A stretch of DNA of 64,000 nucleotides from a phage: the sequence record NC_103192.1. One strand, written 5' to 3'. The translations under genes and the position numbers were made by a program. Within the stretch, counting starts at the first letter, position 1. Each line of letters starts with the position of its first letter. Shown in pieces: positions 17,246-32,366 of the stretch. Below the pieces are notes generated by a model. The model was not told the origin of the DNA. It worked only from the letters and a program-made list of their open reading frames with translations, and did no database searches.

Positions 17246-17435
17246 GCTTAAATCCGCATGGAACATTGCTGTGGGTGATGAGATCCGTATCCCAGGGGGA
17301 AAGACCATTATGAAGATATCTCGTATCGAGTACGAAGGTGATCGTGTATTTCATATCTTTGCAGAAGATGGTCGAGAAATTTATATACAGGCAGGCTCTC
17401 ACATCTATATTCGTAAGAAAGGGGACGACAAATGA
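17238..17435 (+). CDS. hypothetical protein
   Basis: ATG after AAGGAGG RBS. Confidence 0.5.
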   Translation: MFKLKSAWNIAVGDEIRIPGGKTIMKISRIEYEGDRVFHIFAEDGREIYIQAGSHIYIRKKGDDK

Positions 17436-17761
17436 CAGAGATCATCGTTTCAACTGCAGGGTATGTATTCCTGACAATCATTGCACTGACTATTTTGGTG
17501 ACAGTGTATGGGTTTGTTATCCTTCCTATCCTTGAGACATTTAGTTTGTGTCGGTGTTGGAGAAAAGCTTACGGTCCACAACCATGGAAGGACTGGCCCC
17601 ACCTGGTGCGCTTAGCGTTCTCTTATGCTTACGATCACTCCAGCAGTGCATGCATAACCGGATACCACGCCCACAACTGGAGCTGGGAAGGGTTGAGGAA
17701 ATGGAATGTTACAAAGACCATACCTCTGCGCATGTACAAACCTAAAAACAAAGACAGCTGA
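17432..17761 (+). CDS. hypothetical membrane protein
   Basis: Hydrophobic N-terminal segment VFLTIIALTILVTVYGFVILPIL. Confidence 0.55.
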   Translation: MTEIIVSTAGYVFLTIIALTILVTVYGFVILPILETFSLCRCWRKAYGPQPWKDWPHLVRLAFSYAYDHSSSACITGYHAHNWSWEGLRKWNVTKTIPLRMYKPKNKDS

Positions 17762-18061
17762 TACTTGAAAATTCCTGGCATATCAAGTATAAGGGGGATT
17801 TCTAAAATGGATTTCCTCCTTTTGATATTTCACCAGGCTGGATATTTTAAAATCCTTAGAAAATCAGAAAATGGATCGAAAACTAAAATGGATTTTTTCA
17901 AGACAGGCACGATAAGCTGCGCTGCTCATTCTATCATTCGCACCGTACTTCAAATCACAGTTCCAGATTTTCCACACACACTCTCGCCCATCTAACAGGA
18001 CTTTCCCAACTTACCTTCGACCTTTTATGACAATAAGTTAATTATTATCAGTAAGTTTTGA

Positions 18062-18250
18062 TACATCTCTCTCAGTACTCGATCTGTTTTTCATTTCAAA
18101 GATTGGATTTTCTGAAAATTTTTCTCGATAAATTTCTCAGTACTCGATCTGTTTTTCGTTTTCTGAATTGGATTTTCTGGAAATCGTTCCAGCTCTCGAC
18201 CTGAAATTTTTGGGGACGAAATCGATTTTTCGTTTTCAGAAATGGATTTT
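18062..18250. repeat. tandem iteron-like repeats (about 65-bp unit with TTGGATTTTCTG and CTCAGTACTCGATCTGTTTTTC cores)
   Basis: tctcagtactcgatctgtttttc at 18070 and 18137; (a)ttggattttctg(a/g)aaa at 18101 and 18167; further aaatggatt copies at 17806-17890 and 18241. Confidence 0.5.
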
Positions 18251-18363
18251 TAAAATTTCTATATGGGAATATTTTAGTGGATACTATTTTATAGGAAATT
18301 GTTACGGAGGGTAATTAGCATGCTAACTAAATTTATTAAATGCGAAAAGTTCTCATTTAGAAT

Positions 18364-18557
18364 TTTGAATGATAATCATTCTCGTTTGCAGAATAACGGG
18401 CACCCCCGGTGATTGTCTCCCGGCCCCTGTTGCCCCGGCTTGTTATTATAGTATCACACAGGACAAAGAAAGCAAAGACTTTTTGCATAAATTTTTAAAT
18501 GATAATGATAACCGTTCTCATTTTATGCAGCGCCCATCCCCGGTGGTTGTCTCCCCC
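18364..18557. repeat. two direct copies of about 62-bp element ending CCCCGGTG(A/G)TTGTCTCCC
   Basis: 18364..18425 and 18494..18557 align (tt.aatgataat.at...ctc.tt..gcag...cccc.ccggtg.ttgtctccc); inverted third copy at 27746. Confidence 0.5.
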
Positions 18558-18907
18558 GTCACCGGTGCCTGCCGTCCTTTCGATAGGTATATTGTGCCAC
18601 CTGGCGGGGCCGCTGTCAACACTTTTCAAAAAAAAAAAATTCTAACCTGATGCGCTAACCGTTGCAACCTGGCGGGGCCAGCCTGGCAGGTCCGCGCTAT
18701 AAAGTAAGCAGCTACAGAAGAGGTACAAAAATGAAAAGTAATATAATCCCCTGGAAAATGTAGCGATCAATGCCGCTGAAGTTATCGCCCTGGTTGAAAA
18801 GGCTATGGCGGGAGCGTTGGAACATAAAGAAGAGTACGAAAAAATGGTGGTTAACCTGGCGGGGGGCGGCAGGTGGATTCTATCATAAAAATAATTTAAA
18901 ATAGTCG

Positions 18908-18935
18908 TTGACAACAAGGTTAATCATGGTATTAT
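18908..18935 (+). promoter_or_regulatory. sigma70-like promoter (TTGACA-16-TATTAT)
   Basis: atagtcgttgacaaca context identical to 10301..10316. Confidence 0.55.
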
Positions 18936-18986
18936 TACCCTACAAGGTGAACAACACCACACTAATTAACAGAGAGGATAAAAATC

Positions 18987-19184
18987 ATGAACGCCTACGG
19001 AATTAAAGTACGTCGCAACACTCGCCAGGTGGTCACCGATCAAATGGTTTGCCGGGTGGATGTAACCATCAACAACGGGCAAGGCCTTTATAAATTCTGT
19101 CGCGGTCAGAGCTATACCCTGCAACAGCTTAATCGTTGCGCCCTGACAAAAGGTCAGATCAACCACTGGTTTAATAAAAAATAA
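18987..19184 (+). CDS. hypothetical protein
   Basis: RBS AGAGAGGA. Confidence 0.55.
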   Translation: MNAYGIKVRRNTRQVVTDQMVCRVDVTINNGQGLYKFCRGQSYTLQQLNRCALTKGQINHWFNKK

Positions 19185-19187
19185 ATA

Positions 19188-19216
19188 TTGACATGTAGTC
19201 TGAAACAAAACATACT
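19188..19216 (+). promoter_or_regulatory. sigma70-like promoter (TTGACA-17-CATACT)
   Basis: A-rich upstream tract. Confidence 0.5.
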
Positions 19217-19248
19217 GAAAGCACAAAAGGCACTAAGAGGATAAAATC

Positions 19249-19647
19249 ATGAAAACCACAACCTTTAATTTTGACAATGCTGACTTCTCTTTTTCTGATG
19301 TTAAAAGCTGCCGCCGTGATCGCGGATTCTACAAGGCCTATAATCTGGTTGGCCTGGACGATGATAATAATTTGCACGAAGTAGCGGAGATCCGGTACTA
19401 TGCCGCCGCCAGCGGTAACACTCACTACTGCGTTTTTTGGATACACGACAACAAGAACAATAAGTACGGTTATACTGGCGGCAAGGCGAGCGGTCACGGT
19501 TATGATAAAGCTAACGCAGCACTTGAGAGCGCATTAAATGCTATGGGGATCACTGCCGACGGCTGGATCTACGAAGAAGGGTTTTTGTCGGCACTTGCTG
19601 ACCACCTAGGCTATAAAAAGCACATTGTAACATGTGCCCACGAATAA
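19249..19647 (+). CDS. hypothetical protein
   Basis: RBS AAGAGGA. Confidence 0.6.
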   Translation: MKTTTFNFDNADFSFSDVKSCRRDRGFYKAYNLVGLDDDNNLHEVAEIRYYAAASGNTHYCVFWIHDNKNNKYGYTGGKASGHGYDKANAALESALNAMGITADGWIYEEGFLSALADHLGYKKHIVTCAHE

Positions 19648-29038: not shown

Positions 29039-29057
29039 TTTCTTAACTGAATTATCA

Positions 29058-29086
29058 AGGGGCTTAAAGGCCCCTTTCTTTTTGTC
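29058..29086 (+). terminator. rho-independent terminator closing plus-strand block
   Basis: aggggc-ttaaag-gcccct + TTCTTTTTG. Confidence 0.65.
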
Positions 29087-29639
29087 TGCTCTTCTCCTAC
29101 CATAAACGGCCCCACCCGGCAAGTGGAATAATTGACTAGCCAGCAATTGCCTGCACTGTACAAACATACAGGTAAAATAGTTATTGCATAACCTTTCATT
29201 GTGTGGTAGCAGTGCCATTTTTACACGTTTTTCCTTCCAAAATTGCACGTAATGCCGCTATTGCATAAATTTTAACCTGATGCATATCTTCAATATCTTG
29301 TCAACAACTAAAAATCTTTATAAGTCATACACTTACACCACCACAAAAGCGTGTTCTACGTGAAAAATCGGGTGTAACTATAGCCGCCAGATCTCAGAAT
29401 TTACGTACGCTCACCAGTCTATAGCCTGCTAAGTATTTATTCCAACCATAGAATAACGGAATAGTCAATACCTGCATAAAATAATTATTCGTGTAAACTG
29501 CATAACATAAATCAGCCAGGGTGTCAACATTTTTCGTAAACATCTCGAAATTATCACGATGAGTTATCATAAACAGAGAAATCTTTAGTCGTCTAATGTT
29601 TACTGTACATTACTATACTGGCTGGAATCATTAGATGAC

Positions 29640-30140
29640 TAAGAGAAAGATAAGAAATAGTTAACAATGTAATTGTTTTACCTGTAACAATAAGGCAACT
29701 ATGCAAACGAATGGCATGGCGCGACGGAGTCGCGACATAATATAAAAGCAGTAACCATCACCCCCGTGATAGTTTGTCTGCAAACTATTAATCAGATCAT
29801 AGTTGCCTTGTAGTTAGTTAATCATGACACAATAAGCAAGGCAACTATAGATCTGCTAATAGTTGCCCTGCTTTTATATTATGTCATAGAAACACCCGAA
29901 GGGGTGACCGAAGGTCACCTGGCCTAGCCAGTGAAAGATTATTAACTTGTTAATTGTTAACTTGCTAATTGTTTTCATGCAAACGAATGTCATGGCTTAT
30001 CATATCTGCGTGAACAGTGAAACATGGAAATGATAAATATGTGAACAGTTATCCATGTAAACTATTAGACATGCAAACAATCAGGTGTGCAAAAGTGACA
30101 TAGTATGTCACCAGTATGTCATAGTATGTCAGACAAGTTT
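29640..30140. repeat. repeat-dense non-coding region (alternating GGCAACTAT/ATAGTTGCC sites, palindromes, short direct repeats)
   Basis: GGCAACTAT at 29695 and 29840, inverted at 29792 and 29862; palindrome GGTGACCgaaGGTCACC about 29905; gcaaacgaatg(g/t)catggc x2; ttaacttg(t/c)taattgtt x2; agtatgtca x3. Confidence 0.5.
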
Positions 30141-31616
30141 TTCTCCTCTTTGTCAAGTGCTGCATGGAAAATTTACAAACTGGTATGGTAGCATTTTTGC
30201 GGCCCTGTTTACATTCAGGAGTGTATGTATAATCCTTGTTGTGTGGGCGTTTAGACGTCTGGACGGTCAGAAGTCCGCAGGTTAATATCTAATCTATTGG
30301 TTGCTAACTATATCCCACACAAATAGTAAGAAATATAATTGTTATATGCGTAAACAGTAACTCATGTTATCAATCCATGTATGGATCGCCAGTGGTGCGC
30401 ATAATGGGTATTATGTTAAATTGCCCGTAATGATAACCATTCCCACAATGATAGGTATTCTCATTCACCCCCACAAGATAGGTTGCAAATGTTGTGCCAC
30501 TGTGTGAACGGCCTCACCTATTAATTTGCCCCACTGCCTCGATATTTGAGAATTGTTATAAGAATGAGAAGTATTCCCATTCCGTCCGCCTGGCAGCACT
30601 CCAGTCGCTAACGCTCTCGGGCTGAGAGCTATGCTCGATGCTACCGGCTCCTGACAGGGAGGCACTCCTGTAGGACAGGTCAAAATCGGGGCATAACTGG
30701 ACCCCCCTTCAGATATTTCTGGCTGACTCTTCAGGTCTGTGTGGGAAAAGCCAACCTCTCCGGCAGAGGGGAGGGGGTCAATTAAAAAATTTACGTGGTG
30801 TATGAAGCGCTCTTCAGGCAAGGTGTGTATTATGGGAGGAATCACTCTTCAGGTGATGATATTTGTGGGTGTGATATTTGCTGGAAAGCCAGATATGACG
30901 GGACTCCCGGCGGGGCAGGGGTAGTACAGACAGGGAAAATGTGGAGAATGTGGTGGGTAAATTGATCAGGCAGGTAGAGTATGAAATATGTTACAGGTAT
31001 GTTAAATATGGAGGGTGAATATCTGTAAGATTTGTGTGTAAAATCAAAGACTTAAGTGGTGTTGTGGTATTTTCTATAAATAATTCAAGTTTAATAGGTA
31101 ATATTTGTCTCTATCCACTTTGTGTGGTAACCAGATTCAGATGAAATTGGTTTACAAGTGTATACATAATATACAAATTAAAGATACAAGAAACCCCCCT
31201 CCCCCTTCGGCTACCATTCACCTTTTCCTCTGACTGGTACTTAAACACTTATTCAGACTCTTCAGGTTATCACCCATATATCATATGGCAGTGACTGGTG
31301 TCCTCCGGCCCCTCTTTCGTCACCCGTCCGCTTCGCCATGCTAATGCCATAGCCAAAGGTTCGGTTGTTCACCCTGTTCACTCAGGTGTATCTCCATACC
31401 CCTTCAAACCGAAGAGAACAGAAAACCCGAATTACTCGGTAAAAGAAAAGAGAAGAACTTAATTTTATCAGGATAGGCAAGAATGTCAAGGCATGACTGC
31501 TCACTAAACAAGCAAACAGTCATGTGTGGGAGGTAAGTGATTGTGGTGGTAGGAAATTTAGTTGAAAGATGTGTTATAGGTGCTTCCAGCACTTTAGCCG
31601 GGCAGCTAATTGTGTG

Positions 31617-31832
31617 TCAGTCCAGCGGTTCATCTACTACTTCACTGAAATCAATGTTCAGAGTCTCTTCCCAACCATCGATCTCAGCACAAGAGTGGAG
31701 TTCTTTAGGGTTTACTCCCAAAGCCTCAGCAACAGAGTCTATATTTAACACCTCTGGCAGGTATGATTCATCGAATTCAAGGTAAATCAGGCCACGAGTG
31801 TTGTCAGCTCCACCAAATATTTCTATCTTCAT
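31617..31832 (-). CDS. hypothetical small acidic protein (EIVEE-tail paralog family)
   Basis: RBS AGGAG; MKIEIFGG start and acidic C-terminus like array members. Confidence 0.55.
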   Translation of the reverse strand: MKIEIFGGADNTRGLIYLEFDESYLPEVLNIDSVAEALGVNPKELHSCAEIDGWEETLNIDFSEVVDEPLD

Positions 31833-31952
31833 AAAATCTCCTCTGGAAATGAGAGTGTGAACAGGGTTATACGTTCCAATGCACTGGAATTTATATACGT
31901 TTGCCTCTTCAGGCCATGCTTTAGCATGATAAACTTGTGTGGGCTCGGTACT

Positions 31953-32366
31953 TCATAGTCTGCCACCTCTGAACTCTTCGTTCTCAGGCATGATAGAGAA
32001 CCAGATGGCTATGATGTCCTCCCACGTCAGGTCATCAGCCTCAGGATCTACCTGGAGCGAAGATGGAGAATCTTCAGAATTGAAGTTTTTCTCTTTCACT
32101 GTCTCAGCCAAGGGACATATAGTCACTCCTTTGGATGCCTCTTCAGATGCATGTGTGTTTATCATGTTCCACCCGTGAGTATTCCGGCAACAACTGCTAT
32201 GGACGTAATGATCATCAGGATCACCACCAAAACCTCTGACAATGTTTTCATTGTGCGCTCCATATTCTCCAAATGATGTGTGGATACTATCACAGGAGCG
32301 GTAATGTGTCAACAGAAACGCCGCGAGGGTTTGGTTAAAATCCGAGCGTATGGTGATTTGGGTCAA
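31953..32366 (-). CDS. hypothetical His/Cys-rich protein (start uncertain)
   Basis: ORF from track; no convincing RBS. Confidence 0.3.
   Translation of the reverse strand: MTQITIRSDFNQTLAAFLLTHYRSCDSIHTSFGEYGAHNENIVRGFGGDPDDHYVHSSCCRNTHGWNMINTHASEEASKGVTICPLAETVKEKNFNSEDSPSSLQVDPEADDLTWEDIIAIWFSIMPENEEFRGGRL

Follow-up and report, generated by a model that had tools for sequence, protein, structure and literature searches.

A conserved three-unit non-coding repeat array within a possible origin-like module of rV5-like phages

The 64,000 nucleotides of phage DNA analysed here (record NC_103192.1, referred to as the window) contain a gene-free gap in which three tandem direct repeats of 65-74 bp, spanning 18065-18262, lie among further repeats, palindromes and predicted promoters. 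Phages of the rV5-like and phi92-like groups are among the most often isolated broad-host-range coliphages and are candidates for therapy, and to our knowledge neither a replication origin nor a cis-acting control element has been defined in them so far; in rV5, an origin was sought by skew analysis, and only changes tied to transcription direction were found (PMC3606486). Region 17400-19300 of the window matched 121 phage records at 80-95% identity, nearly all of them Vequintavirus (rV5, FV3, Gotham, BASEL isolates), and on the strength of these matches we assign the window to an rV5-like virulent E. coli myovirus of the genus Vequintavirus (rV5/FV3-like). The rV5 counterpart of the array is situated between open reading frames (ORFs) ORF200 and ORF195, within a long early transcription unit (rV5 record; rV5 paper PMC3606486). 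A repeat search returned a three-copy direct-repeat family at 18065-18111, 18130-18176 and 18204-18250 (identities of 81%, 100% and 77%, spacings of 65 and 74 nt), and the units to which these copies belong are:

18065-18129, plus strand: unit U1, with box 1 CTCGATC, TTTTTC and box 2 ATTGGATTTTCT, then GAAAATTTTTC and TCGATAAATT; it aligns to the units of other genera.
18130-18203, plus strand: unit U2, the reference copy, whose box 2 is ATCGGATTTT in most relatives.
18204-18262, plus strand: unit U3, with a degenerate box 1 AAATCGAT, then TTTTTCGTTTTCAGAAATGGATTTTTAAAAT; it is 77% identical to U2 in register.

The units follow a common plan, in which box 1 (CTCGATC) and a T-tract (TTTTTC) are followed by box 2, some two helical turns away, and an A/T-tract junction; box 2 reads ATYGGATTT in the window and ATCGTATTT in other genera. 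The repetition exceeds what base composition would yield. The 23-mer TCTCAGTACTCGATCTGTTTTTC is repeated without mismatch at 18070 and 18135, a distance of 65 nt, and when up to three mismatches were allowed it had 2 matches against 0.00 expected from shuffles; TGGATTTTCTGRAAA is found exactly at 18104 and 18169. Furthermore, AAATGGATTT occurs exactly at 17805, 17886 and 18240 (3 matches against 0.40 expected, a count reached in no shuffle), and its variant AAATGGATC at 17869. G+C content falls to 0.31-0.37 over 17750-18500, compared to about 0.43 in the flanks. An initial annotation of this DNA had described tandem repeats of about 65 bp, additional aaatggatt(t) copies, an A12 run (18628-18639) and AT-rich surroundings, and each of these descriptions holds. 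Tandem Repeats Finder did not report the 65-nt repeat, but only a 12-nt micro-repeat, because three copies at 77-84% identity score below its threshold. An apparent second genomic copy of the array (two places per record) proved to be an off-register self-match of the tandem repeat.

That the gap is free of genes, as the initial annotation had also proposed, is borne out by several lines of evidence. Among ten annotated relatives, the 'hypothetical' ORFs drawn over 17762-19249 differ in strand and frame, or none is annotated, and those that some records place here (rV5 ORF199-196) vary from record to record. The equivalent of ORF199 (17807-17995) is interrupted by frame-breaking 1-nt and 2-nt indels among close relatives, shows no codon-position pattern (identities of 0.76, 0.86 and 0.78 at codon positions 1, 2 and 3) and matched no PHROG family. 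The array itself has stop codons in all six frames, and across seven lineages no frame is consistently open. We therefore rejected a coding array.

The units also gave little indication of acting as RNA. Their predicted folding was no better than that of shuffles (z = +1.1, -0.6 and -0.3 in the window), and for 15 units from several phages z ranged from -2 to +1, the sole significant case being one CR3 unit; with that exception, hairpins or cruciforms in each unit were discarded. Since the units fold no better than shuffles, they most likely act as duplex DNA. Rfam had no match in the window region, the CR3 locus or the KP13-16 locus, and no transfer RNAs were found in the region. A structured non-coding RNA or a type III antitoxin-like repeat fits poorly with the absence of an Rfam family, the lack of a folding excess and a copy number fixed at three. 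One such system is known from an rV5-like phage, the RNA antitoxin mimic pseudo-ToxI of phiTE (Certrevirus), which likewise consists of tandem non-coding repeats; however, its 36-nt units expand in copy number under selection whereas the array always has three, the two share no sequence similarity, and pseudo-ToxI occupies a different locus (106.7 kb, against 39 kb for the module homologue in phiTE).

We compared the window with ten Vequintavirus relatives to measure how well the array is kept. Identities were as follows, and all later identities refer to the same comparison:

Flanking ORFs, codon positions 1 and 2: 0.958.
Flanking ORFs, codon position 3: 0.866.
Array U1-U3: 0.936.
U1: 0.878.
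U2: 0.945.
U3: 0.988, the highest of the three units.

The array is therefore under purifying selection: what is kept is a non-coding element under constraint rather than a repeat prone to slippage. The alignment of the ten relatives contained no unit-scale indels, and 115 of 116 Vequintavirus records covered at least 80% of a 607-nt query, so the copy number is fixed. It is highly improbable that the array is a neutral slippage repeat, a set of small coding ORFs or a plasmid-type partition site (centromere), readings that can draw only on direct repeats having been noticed in a gap. Neutral slippage is excluded by the fixed copy number and by purifying selection, and coding by six-frame stops and inconsistent annotation. 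The partition site that the initial annotation had offered as one possibility did not stand up either, as the phage is virulent, no ParA/ParB match was found among the flanking ORFs scanned and there is no true plasmid match. Homology to a plasmid origin was dropped for the same last reason: the sole PLSDB match is a mis-filed Vequintavirus genome. This entry, the 137,565-bp E. coli 'plasmid' CP057073.1, is 96% identical over 98% of the query and evidently is a Vequintavirus genome.

The array is not confined to one genus. Other genera were reached with the ORF195 protein as an anchor, followed by a DNA search from the phi92-like locus. Three CTCGATC units were present in CR3, phiTE, GAP31 (Seunavirus), KB57 (Mydovirus) and TH18, at spacings of 74-78 and 63-67 bp that add up to 140-143 bp, compared to 139 bp in the window. 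A three-unit array spanning about 140 bp is thus found in all five Vequintavirinae genera or lineages examined, with the unit consensus gGGTTCTCGATCGnnTTTTCnnTTTCnArATCGTATTT ... AAAAAATTTTT. In this alignment TTGGATTTTCT of the window pairs with ATCGTATTTTTTCT of the other genera, and TGGATTTT, a motif stressed in the initial annotation, is consequently a genus-specific form of box 2, the other genera reading ATCGTATTT at that position of the unit. More distantly, the phi92/phAPEC8-like phage alia has three diverged AT-rich units of 63-70 bp, and phi92-like KP13-16 has two units, each of them a plus-strand promoter close to consensus, with GGATTTTAAAATCC in the spacer. The genes flanking the module vary between genera and offer no informative function while the module persists, which places it among the best-conserved non-coding stretches near the early genes, kept as the surrounding genes are replaced.

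Searches further afield added little. A scan of IMG/VR with a pattern of 16 specified bases returned mostly single chance matches, and the tandem units had no similarity to any E. coli genome sequence. Clustering of GATC (Dam) sites was considered and set aside: other genera have 2 per unit, yet the window array has just 2 sites. We found no description of this region, or of its palindrome and T5 links discussed below, in the literature on rV5-like phages; the element is an undescribed version of known kinds of phage cis-element. Altogether, the three repeats of about 65-74 bp at 18065-18262 are very probably a non-coding double-stranded-DNA element whose three-unit array is kept across the Vequintavirinae. 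As far as comparison of sequences can tell, it seems secure that they form a conserved three-unit protein-binding or architectural DNA array within an ancient cis-acting module.

This module is a gene-free stretch of about 1.1 kb in which GATATTT/AAATGGATTT repeats, a variable spacer, the three units, an AT-rich linker, palindromes and GC-rich E1 elements follow one another. Besides the units, its features are (strand given where one applies):

17820-17905: Block A, with GATATTT twice (17824, 17841), the palindrome GGATATTTTAAAATCC (17840-17855) and the short repeats AGAAAATC and AAATGGAT(C/T); identity 0.90, rising to 1.00 over 17860-17900.
17906-18064: hypervariable C-rich spacer in three allele classes, with 1-nt and 2-nt indels and a GC skew of -0.21 to -0.27; identity 0.668.
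18263-18338: AT-rich linker between units and palindromes; identity 0.92.
18339-18386: two 19-bp palindromes of Fur-box type, AATGCGAAAAGTTCTCATT (18339) and AATGATAATCATTCTCGTT (18368), at a spacing of 29 bp.
18390-18440: GC-rich element E1a, containing CGGGCACCCCCGGTGATTGTCTCC.
18475->18445, minus strand: weak antisense promoter a, TTGCTT-19-TATAAT, read by eye and directed leftward into E1a, the palindromes and the repeats.
18498-18522 (18504): third Fur-box-type palindrome, GATAATGATAACCGTTCTC, inside a duplication of about 135 bp.
18530-18590: GC-rich element E1b, the second copy, containing CCCCGGTGGTTGTCTCCC; identity 0.94-1.00.
18619->18591, minus strand: antisense sigma-70-type promoter b, TTGACA-17-CACAAT with TG, directed leftward, 10/12.
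18628-18639: A12 run, read as a T12 tract on the minus strand, where it comes shortly before the -35 hexamer of promoter b; its length is 9-12 among relatives.

Several of these features recur outside Vequintavirus. A homologue of Block A (two to four GATATTT copies and A-rich repeats with a period of about 8 nt) follows the upstream gene in CR3, phiTE, GAP31, KB57, TH18, KP13-16 and alia; in the window, Block A overlaps the 'ORF199' annotation of rV5, itself non-coding. E1a is nearly identical in CR3 (locus about 580-605) and recognisable in phiTE, GAP31, KB57, KP13-16, alia and anhysbys. Both E1 copies share the motif CGGTGrTTGTCTC, and each is preceded by a minus-strand promoter. A promoter scan located positional equivalents of promoter a in CR3 (658->630, TTGCAA-17-TATATT) and KP13-16 (1450->1423, TTGATC-16-TATTAT), and of promoter b in CR3 (820->792), KP13-16 (1612->1584) and alia (3350->3322), the latter scoring 10-11/12. 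No minus-strand ORF lies downstream of the antisense promoters in the window. The A12/T12 tract may have an UP-element-like role. Specific to Vequintavirus is a tandem duplication of about 135 bp (18340-18450 and 18476-18590) that comprises Fur-type palindrome, E1 and antisense promoter; other genera have instead a different second GC-rich element, E2 (AGCCCCGCCTTTTCGCCGTGGGGTGGCG), and a small minus-strand gene, both of which the window lacks. Covarying E1 stems spotted by hand (CCGG/CCGG, TCG/CGA, GCG/CGC) received no support from RNAalifold.

The physical properties of the DNA also change along the module. The least stable 100-bp stretch of the whole window starts at 18241, and 18196-18395 is its third least stable 200-bp stretch, behind two in the terminal non-coding zone. 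The spacer at 17906-18064, G-poor on its plus strand, is less well conserved (0.67) than the third codon positions of the flanking ORFs (0.87), with near-invariant DNA on both sides; a recombination hot spot, a Rho-utilisation-like tract and plain lack of constraint are all conceivable explanations. Between U1 and U2, at 18125-18134, is TCGATAAATT, which matches exactly the published high-affinity nucleation motif of H-NS, and this is its only occurrence in the window.

The palindromes resemble operators of the host iron regulator. The E. coli Fur consensus is the 19-bp GATAATGATAATCATTATC, and the phage consensus is AATGAGAATcATTCTCATT at spacings of 29-38 bp. Matches to the Fur consensus reached 15/19 at 18365 and 16/19 at 18501, in the neighbouring palindromes and not in the tandem units, and a 16-nt run, ATAATCATTCTCGTTT, is identical to the Fur box of the K-12 fhuA promoter. 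By this likeness the palindromes are look-alikes of Fur-binding sites. E. coli Fur operator arrays such as that of the fhuA promoter further share with them an organisation in clusters of 2-6; they differ in that the phage half-sites are GAGAAT instead of GATAAT, the phage sites overlap no obvious regulated promoter, and an array is also present at the genome terminus. Within the window, Fur-type palindromes occur only at 18339-18522 and 30426-30581 (30426, 30447, 30563), against an average of 0.6 in shuffles, and Cronobacter phage CR3 has the same two-cluster layout, with the clusters 12-13 kb apart. Moreover, the Fur-type word TGATAATCATTCTC is common to most phages compared (Vequintavirinae, Stephanstirmvirinae, Demerecviridae), including a T5-like phage.

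Promoters and Fur boxes raise the question of whether the module is a transcription-control region of operators, promoters, terminators or insulators, possibly responsive to Fur and iron, that separates two early operons and yields non-coding transcripts. We consider this possible but doubtful. Fur boxes are classical operators, and the exact 16-nt fhuA match fits such a role, as do the conserved antisense promoters, the terminator-like look of E2 on the plus strand in other genera, the strong plus-strand promoter at 18908 that restarts the next operon, and the C-rich, G-poor spacer, which may resemble a Rho-utilisation site. The units of KP13-16 are themselves near-consensus promoters (TTGACA-17-CATAAT, 11/12, and TGGACA-17-CATAAT, 10/12), with the palindrome in their spacer. 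However, such promoter units are specific to the KP13-16 lineage; no sigma-70 promoter was called on the plus strand in 17762-18900, and so none in the units of the window, although these are the most conserved part in the Vequintavirinae. Neither Rfam nor unit folding indicated an RNA element, and a promoter or terminator needs no fixed set of three units over a constant span of about 140 bp.

We favour, with a probability of roughly 0.35, a reading in which the module would be a replication-origin-like assembly site activated by transcription. By analogy with known origins, host RNA polymerase would start at the antisense promoters (18619->18591 and about 18475->18445), make a G-rich RNA across E1 and then pass the palindrome array, which would be occupied by Fur or by some phage protein. 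Transcription would next reach the least stable DNA (18196-18395) and the three units, where proteins on both boxes of each unit, together with A/T-tract bends, could organise about 140 bp beside the opening, and an R-loop or open complex formed there might be used for loading the phage helicase-primase. Transcription-activated origins are known from T4 (oriF/oriG), T7 and ColE1. The module is like these R-loop and primary origins in that ORF-less promoters point into an AT-rich unwinding region and the first ~50 nt of the predicted transcript are G-rich over a C-rich template, and it is unlike them in having a palindrome array between promoter and AT-rich DNA.

Consistent with an origin-like role, the repeats exceed chance, are non-coding, are held by purifying selection at a fixed copy number and keep a constant span of about 140 bp. 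The same role fits the least stable DNA at their side, the ORF-less antisense promoters present in three other lineages, the regularly spaced palindromes, a module that outlasts its flanking genes and, in T5-like phages, a homologous palindrome array beside perfect DnaA boxes.

The initial annotation had called the repeats iteron-like, and this description was not supported. Classical iterons are 17-22 bp long and recur roughly every two helical turns (~22 bp). Iteron-type origins (lambda ori, P1 oriR, F, pSC101, RK2, R6K) resemble the module in their direct repeats beside AT-rich, easily melted DNA (here the least stable 100 bp from 18241, with G+C at 0.31) and in their constant repeat number, and the phased 19-bp palindromes recall the four 19-bp O-binding sites of lambda. 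In contrast, the units are 65-74 bp long and about 70 bp apart (63-78 bp in other genera), no Rep- or O-type initiator gene adjoins them, and the palindromes, the only iteron-sized elements with their 29-38-bp spacing, match the host Fur box.

A number of observations weigh against the origin-like reading itself. The units are not of iteron size, and the palindromes resemble sites for host Fur and not for a replication protein. PHROG and Pfam searches found no Rep or initiator family among the flanking ORFs scanned on either side; across the window and 5 other phages these ORFs belonged only to unknown-function families, a methyltransferase, NADAR and an endonuclease. The window module has no convincing DnaA box, since its single TTATCCACA-like site, at 17968, deviates at one position and falls in the variable spacer. 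The oriC 13-mer likeness of GATCTGTTTTTC, with 55 matches where 38.7 were expected, was rejected as no better than chance. At the module there is no turn in GC skew, which changes sign at about 32 kb, where gene orientation flips. The G-runs of the antisense RNA vary between genera and are not conserved, and RNAalifold found essentially no consensus structure for E1 on either strand, hairpins being confined to individual sequences. Furthermore, Davison (bioRxiv 10.1101/866236, citing three earlier studies) puts the origins of T5 replication close to the middle of the DNA molecule and not in the T5 counterpart of the module. Sites for IHF, judged by eye, were not of note. The origin proposed in the initial annotation is thus supported in part: the layout resembles an origin and is clearly functional, though not that of a classical iteron array. 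The proposal gains from non-coding, maintained, easily melted DNA with palindromes and antisense promoters, and loses from the lack of an initiator gene, DnaA boxes and a skew turn.

The position of the module relative to the genome end allows a comparison with T5. The termini of Gotham were determined experimentally and comprise a 459-bp terminal repeat (PMC7471380), which maps to the window as follows:

30132-30590: equivalent of the Gotham 459-bp terminal repeat (physical genome end), mapped by blastn, with Gotham position 1 at window 30590.

The distance of the module from the Gotham-mapped physical end is accordingly 11.5-12.5 kb (8.4-9.0% of the genome), and since the terminal repeat measures only 459 bp, the module is not at a repeat boundary. 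On its genome-end side it borders a block of about 30 small genes to which no function has been assigned. The start of the ETEC-TG record inside the module was examined as a clue to a terminus and discarded, the record being circular and its start arbitrary. Around the terminal repeat itself, 29051-32192 is an almost gene-free zone of about 3 kb where plus- and minus-strand gene blocks converge; it holds the terminal-repeat equivalent, two of the window's least stable stretches and the change in sign of the GC skew, and probably corresponds to the 'non-coding' box of the rV5 genome map.

The palindrome array of the phi92-like module matched many T5-like phages (blastn, E down to 5e-12; 459 records in all). 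In T5, Repeat Region 3 (AY587007 9194-10409) is untranslated and contains the presumed injection stop signal (iss), and the calculated shear point of first-step transfer is 9618, at 7.9% of the genome (Davison, bioRxiv 10.1101/866236). The palindromes of the module, of AAATGAGAATCATT type, recur in T5 as its 'direct repeat C' and palindromes E-I (T5 locus 474-632), which are located at this shear point. The two regions are alike in being large, untranslated and conserved above their neighbouring genes, in their AAATGAGAATCATT-type palindrome arrays (window 18339, 18368 and 18504), and in lying about 8% from a genome end (7.9% in T5; 8.4-9.0% in the window by the Gotham termini). Past its palindromes T5 also has short direct repeats with a AAATCCGA core. 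They are unlike in other respects. T5 has paired DnaA boxes (IRD'/IRC') and a LexA-like palindrome, neither of which occurs in the window module; its repeats are 15 bp long in 9 irregularly spaced copies, against three units of about 70 bp; its region adjoins a terminal repeat of 10 kb and a site-specific nick; and it is without the GC-rich E1 elements and antisense promoters of the rV5 type. Two-step injection, moreover, is documented for T5-like phages only. The T5 DRD repeat TGTGCAAATCCGACA shares just the core AAATCCGA with box 2 of U2 in most Vequintaviruses (CCAGAAAATCCGAT when read from the near genome end), where it has a matching orientation with respect to the palindromes and that end, the window reading AAATCCAA. 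Homology of the palindrome arrays of the module and T5 is well supported, whereas a relation of the tandem units to DRD is suggested by an 8-mer only.

Could the module, then, be a boundary element like the T5 iss, that is, a nucleoprotein site at the inner edge of the first ~12 kb beside the genome end, with its ~30 small early genes, that serves DNA entry, anchoring or early processing? The blastn tie to T5-like phages, the location of direct repeat C and palindromes E-I at the T5 shear point, and the distance of the module from the Gotham terminus all point this way. So do the apparently shared order from the near genome end (palindrome array, then short AAATCCGA-type repeats) and the confinement of Fur-type palindromes to the module and the terminal-repeat zone, with CR3 likewise having two sites 12-13 kb apart. 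We nevertheless think it unlikely. No rV5-like myovirus has ever been reported to inject its DNA in two steps, the terminal repeat measures 459 bp instead of 10 kb, and the genes between module and end are transcribed toward the end, apparently opposite to T5. No A1- or A2-sized gene is evident at 19-29 kb, where the scanned ORFs are at most 207 amino acids long and fall in unknown-function PHROGs, though no search was aimed at A1/A2 homology. The restriction insensitivity of T5, discussed together with first-step-transfer functions (Davison, bioRxiv 10.1101/866236), has no counterpart in the Vequintavirinae, which are unusually restriction-sensitive (PMC8594841). The link of the units to DRD amounts to one 8-mer, and in T5 itself an injection-stop role of the repeats is unproven.

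The T5 region also bears on the possibility that the sites act as a decoy, or sponge, for host factors. T5 'palindrome D' ACTGTATAAATATACAGTA (T5 locus 331-350; bobsandoy locus 420-440) is, as we take it, a near-consensus LexA (SOS) box, a reading absent from Davison's analysis, and its immediate neighbours in the injection-stop region are DnaA boxes and Fur-type palindromes. The DnaA boxes are perfect and adjoin the homologous palindrome array in T5-like phages (T5, bobsandoy). With LexA-like, DnaA and Fur-type sites together, the T5 region looks like a cluster of host transcription-factor sites. A decoy would offer many strong sites as phage DNA multiplies and so titrate Fur in the rV5-like phages and DnaA and the LexA-box protein in T5, rewiring host regulation, with the units directed at a further host protein. 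The sharing of TGATAATCATTCTC across phage groups is most simply explained by a host protein, and the combination of Fur-type, DnaA and presumed LexA sites in T5 and the H-NS nucleation motif at 18125 would agree with titration. Even so, we judge a decoy quite improbable: a sponge requires no fixed order, copy number, spacing or antisense promoters, there are few sites per genome, and the tandem units have no similarity to E. coli, so no host site is mimicked there.

A broader proposal would unite three families of large virulent enterobacterial phages: the module may be one ancient cis-element of the Vequintavirinae, Stephanstirmvirinae and T5-like Demerecviridae, marked by Fur-type palindromes and a position about 8-9% from a genome end. 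We regard this as rather improbable. Were it true, rV5-like and phi92-like myoviruses might share T5-like staged genome delivery or activation, with the module as stop or anchor; alternatively, the module, including the T5 'iss' repeats, might be a Fur-assisted replication or processing site, in which case the 40-year-old T5 iss problem and the rV5 origin would be one question. At the level of sequence, the module provides a tie to the T5 injection-stop region, the mechanism of which has been under debate since 1987, and the cross-family link and the Fur-type sites make the questions of the rV5 origin and the T5 iss testable at one small locus. For phage engineering, the region is unsuitable as a neutral insertion site.

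Three further observations concern the surroundings of the module and its relatives. In the Klebsiella phage KP13-16, a small minus-strand gene beside the module (locus 1617-1826) encodes a 69-amino-acid protein (…AARRAITGLIKKGFLV…) that by eye resembles a winged-helix DNA-binding domain and may be what binds the repeats in that lineage; it matched neither PHROG nor Pfam and has no counterpart in the window. Among the records related to the region, 16 labelled 'Campylobacter phage' (host Campylobacter jejuni, MG0656xx) are 85-88% identical to it; mislabelled hosts or contaminated preparations are the probable cause. Finally, (A/C)ACCTGGCGGGG occurs three times to the right of the array, at 18598, 18666 and 18853, and several relatives carry an insertion of about 48 bp (GGACCTAACTGACCAGGTAGGAGAG...) at about 18690, between copies of this sequence.

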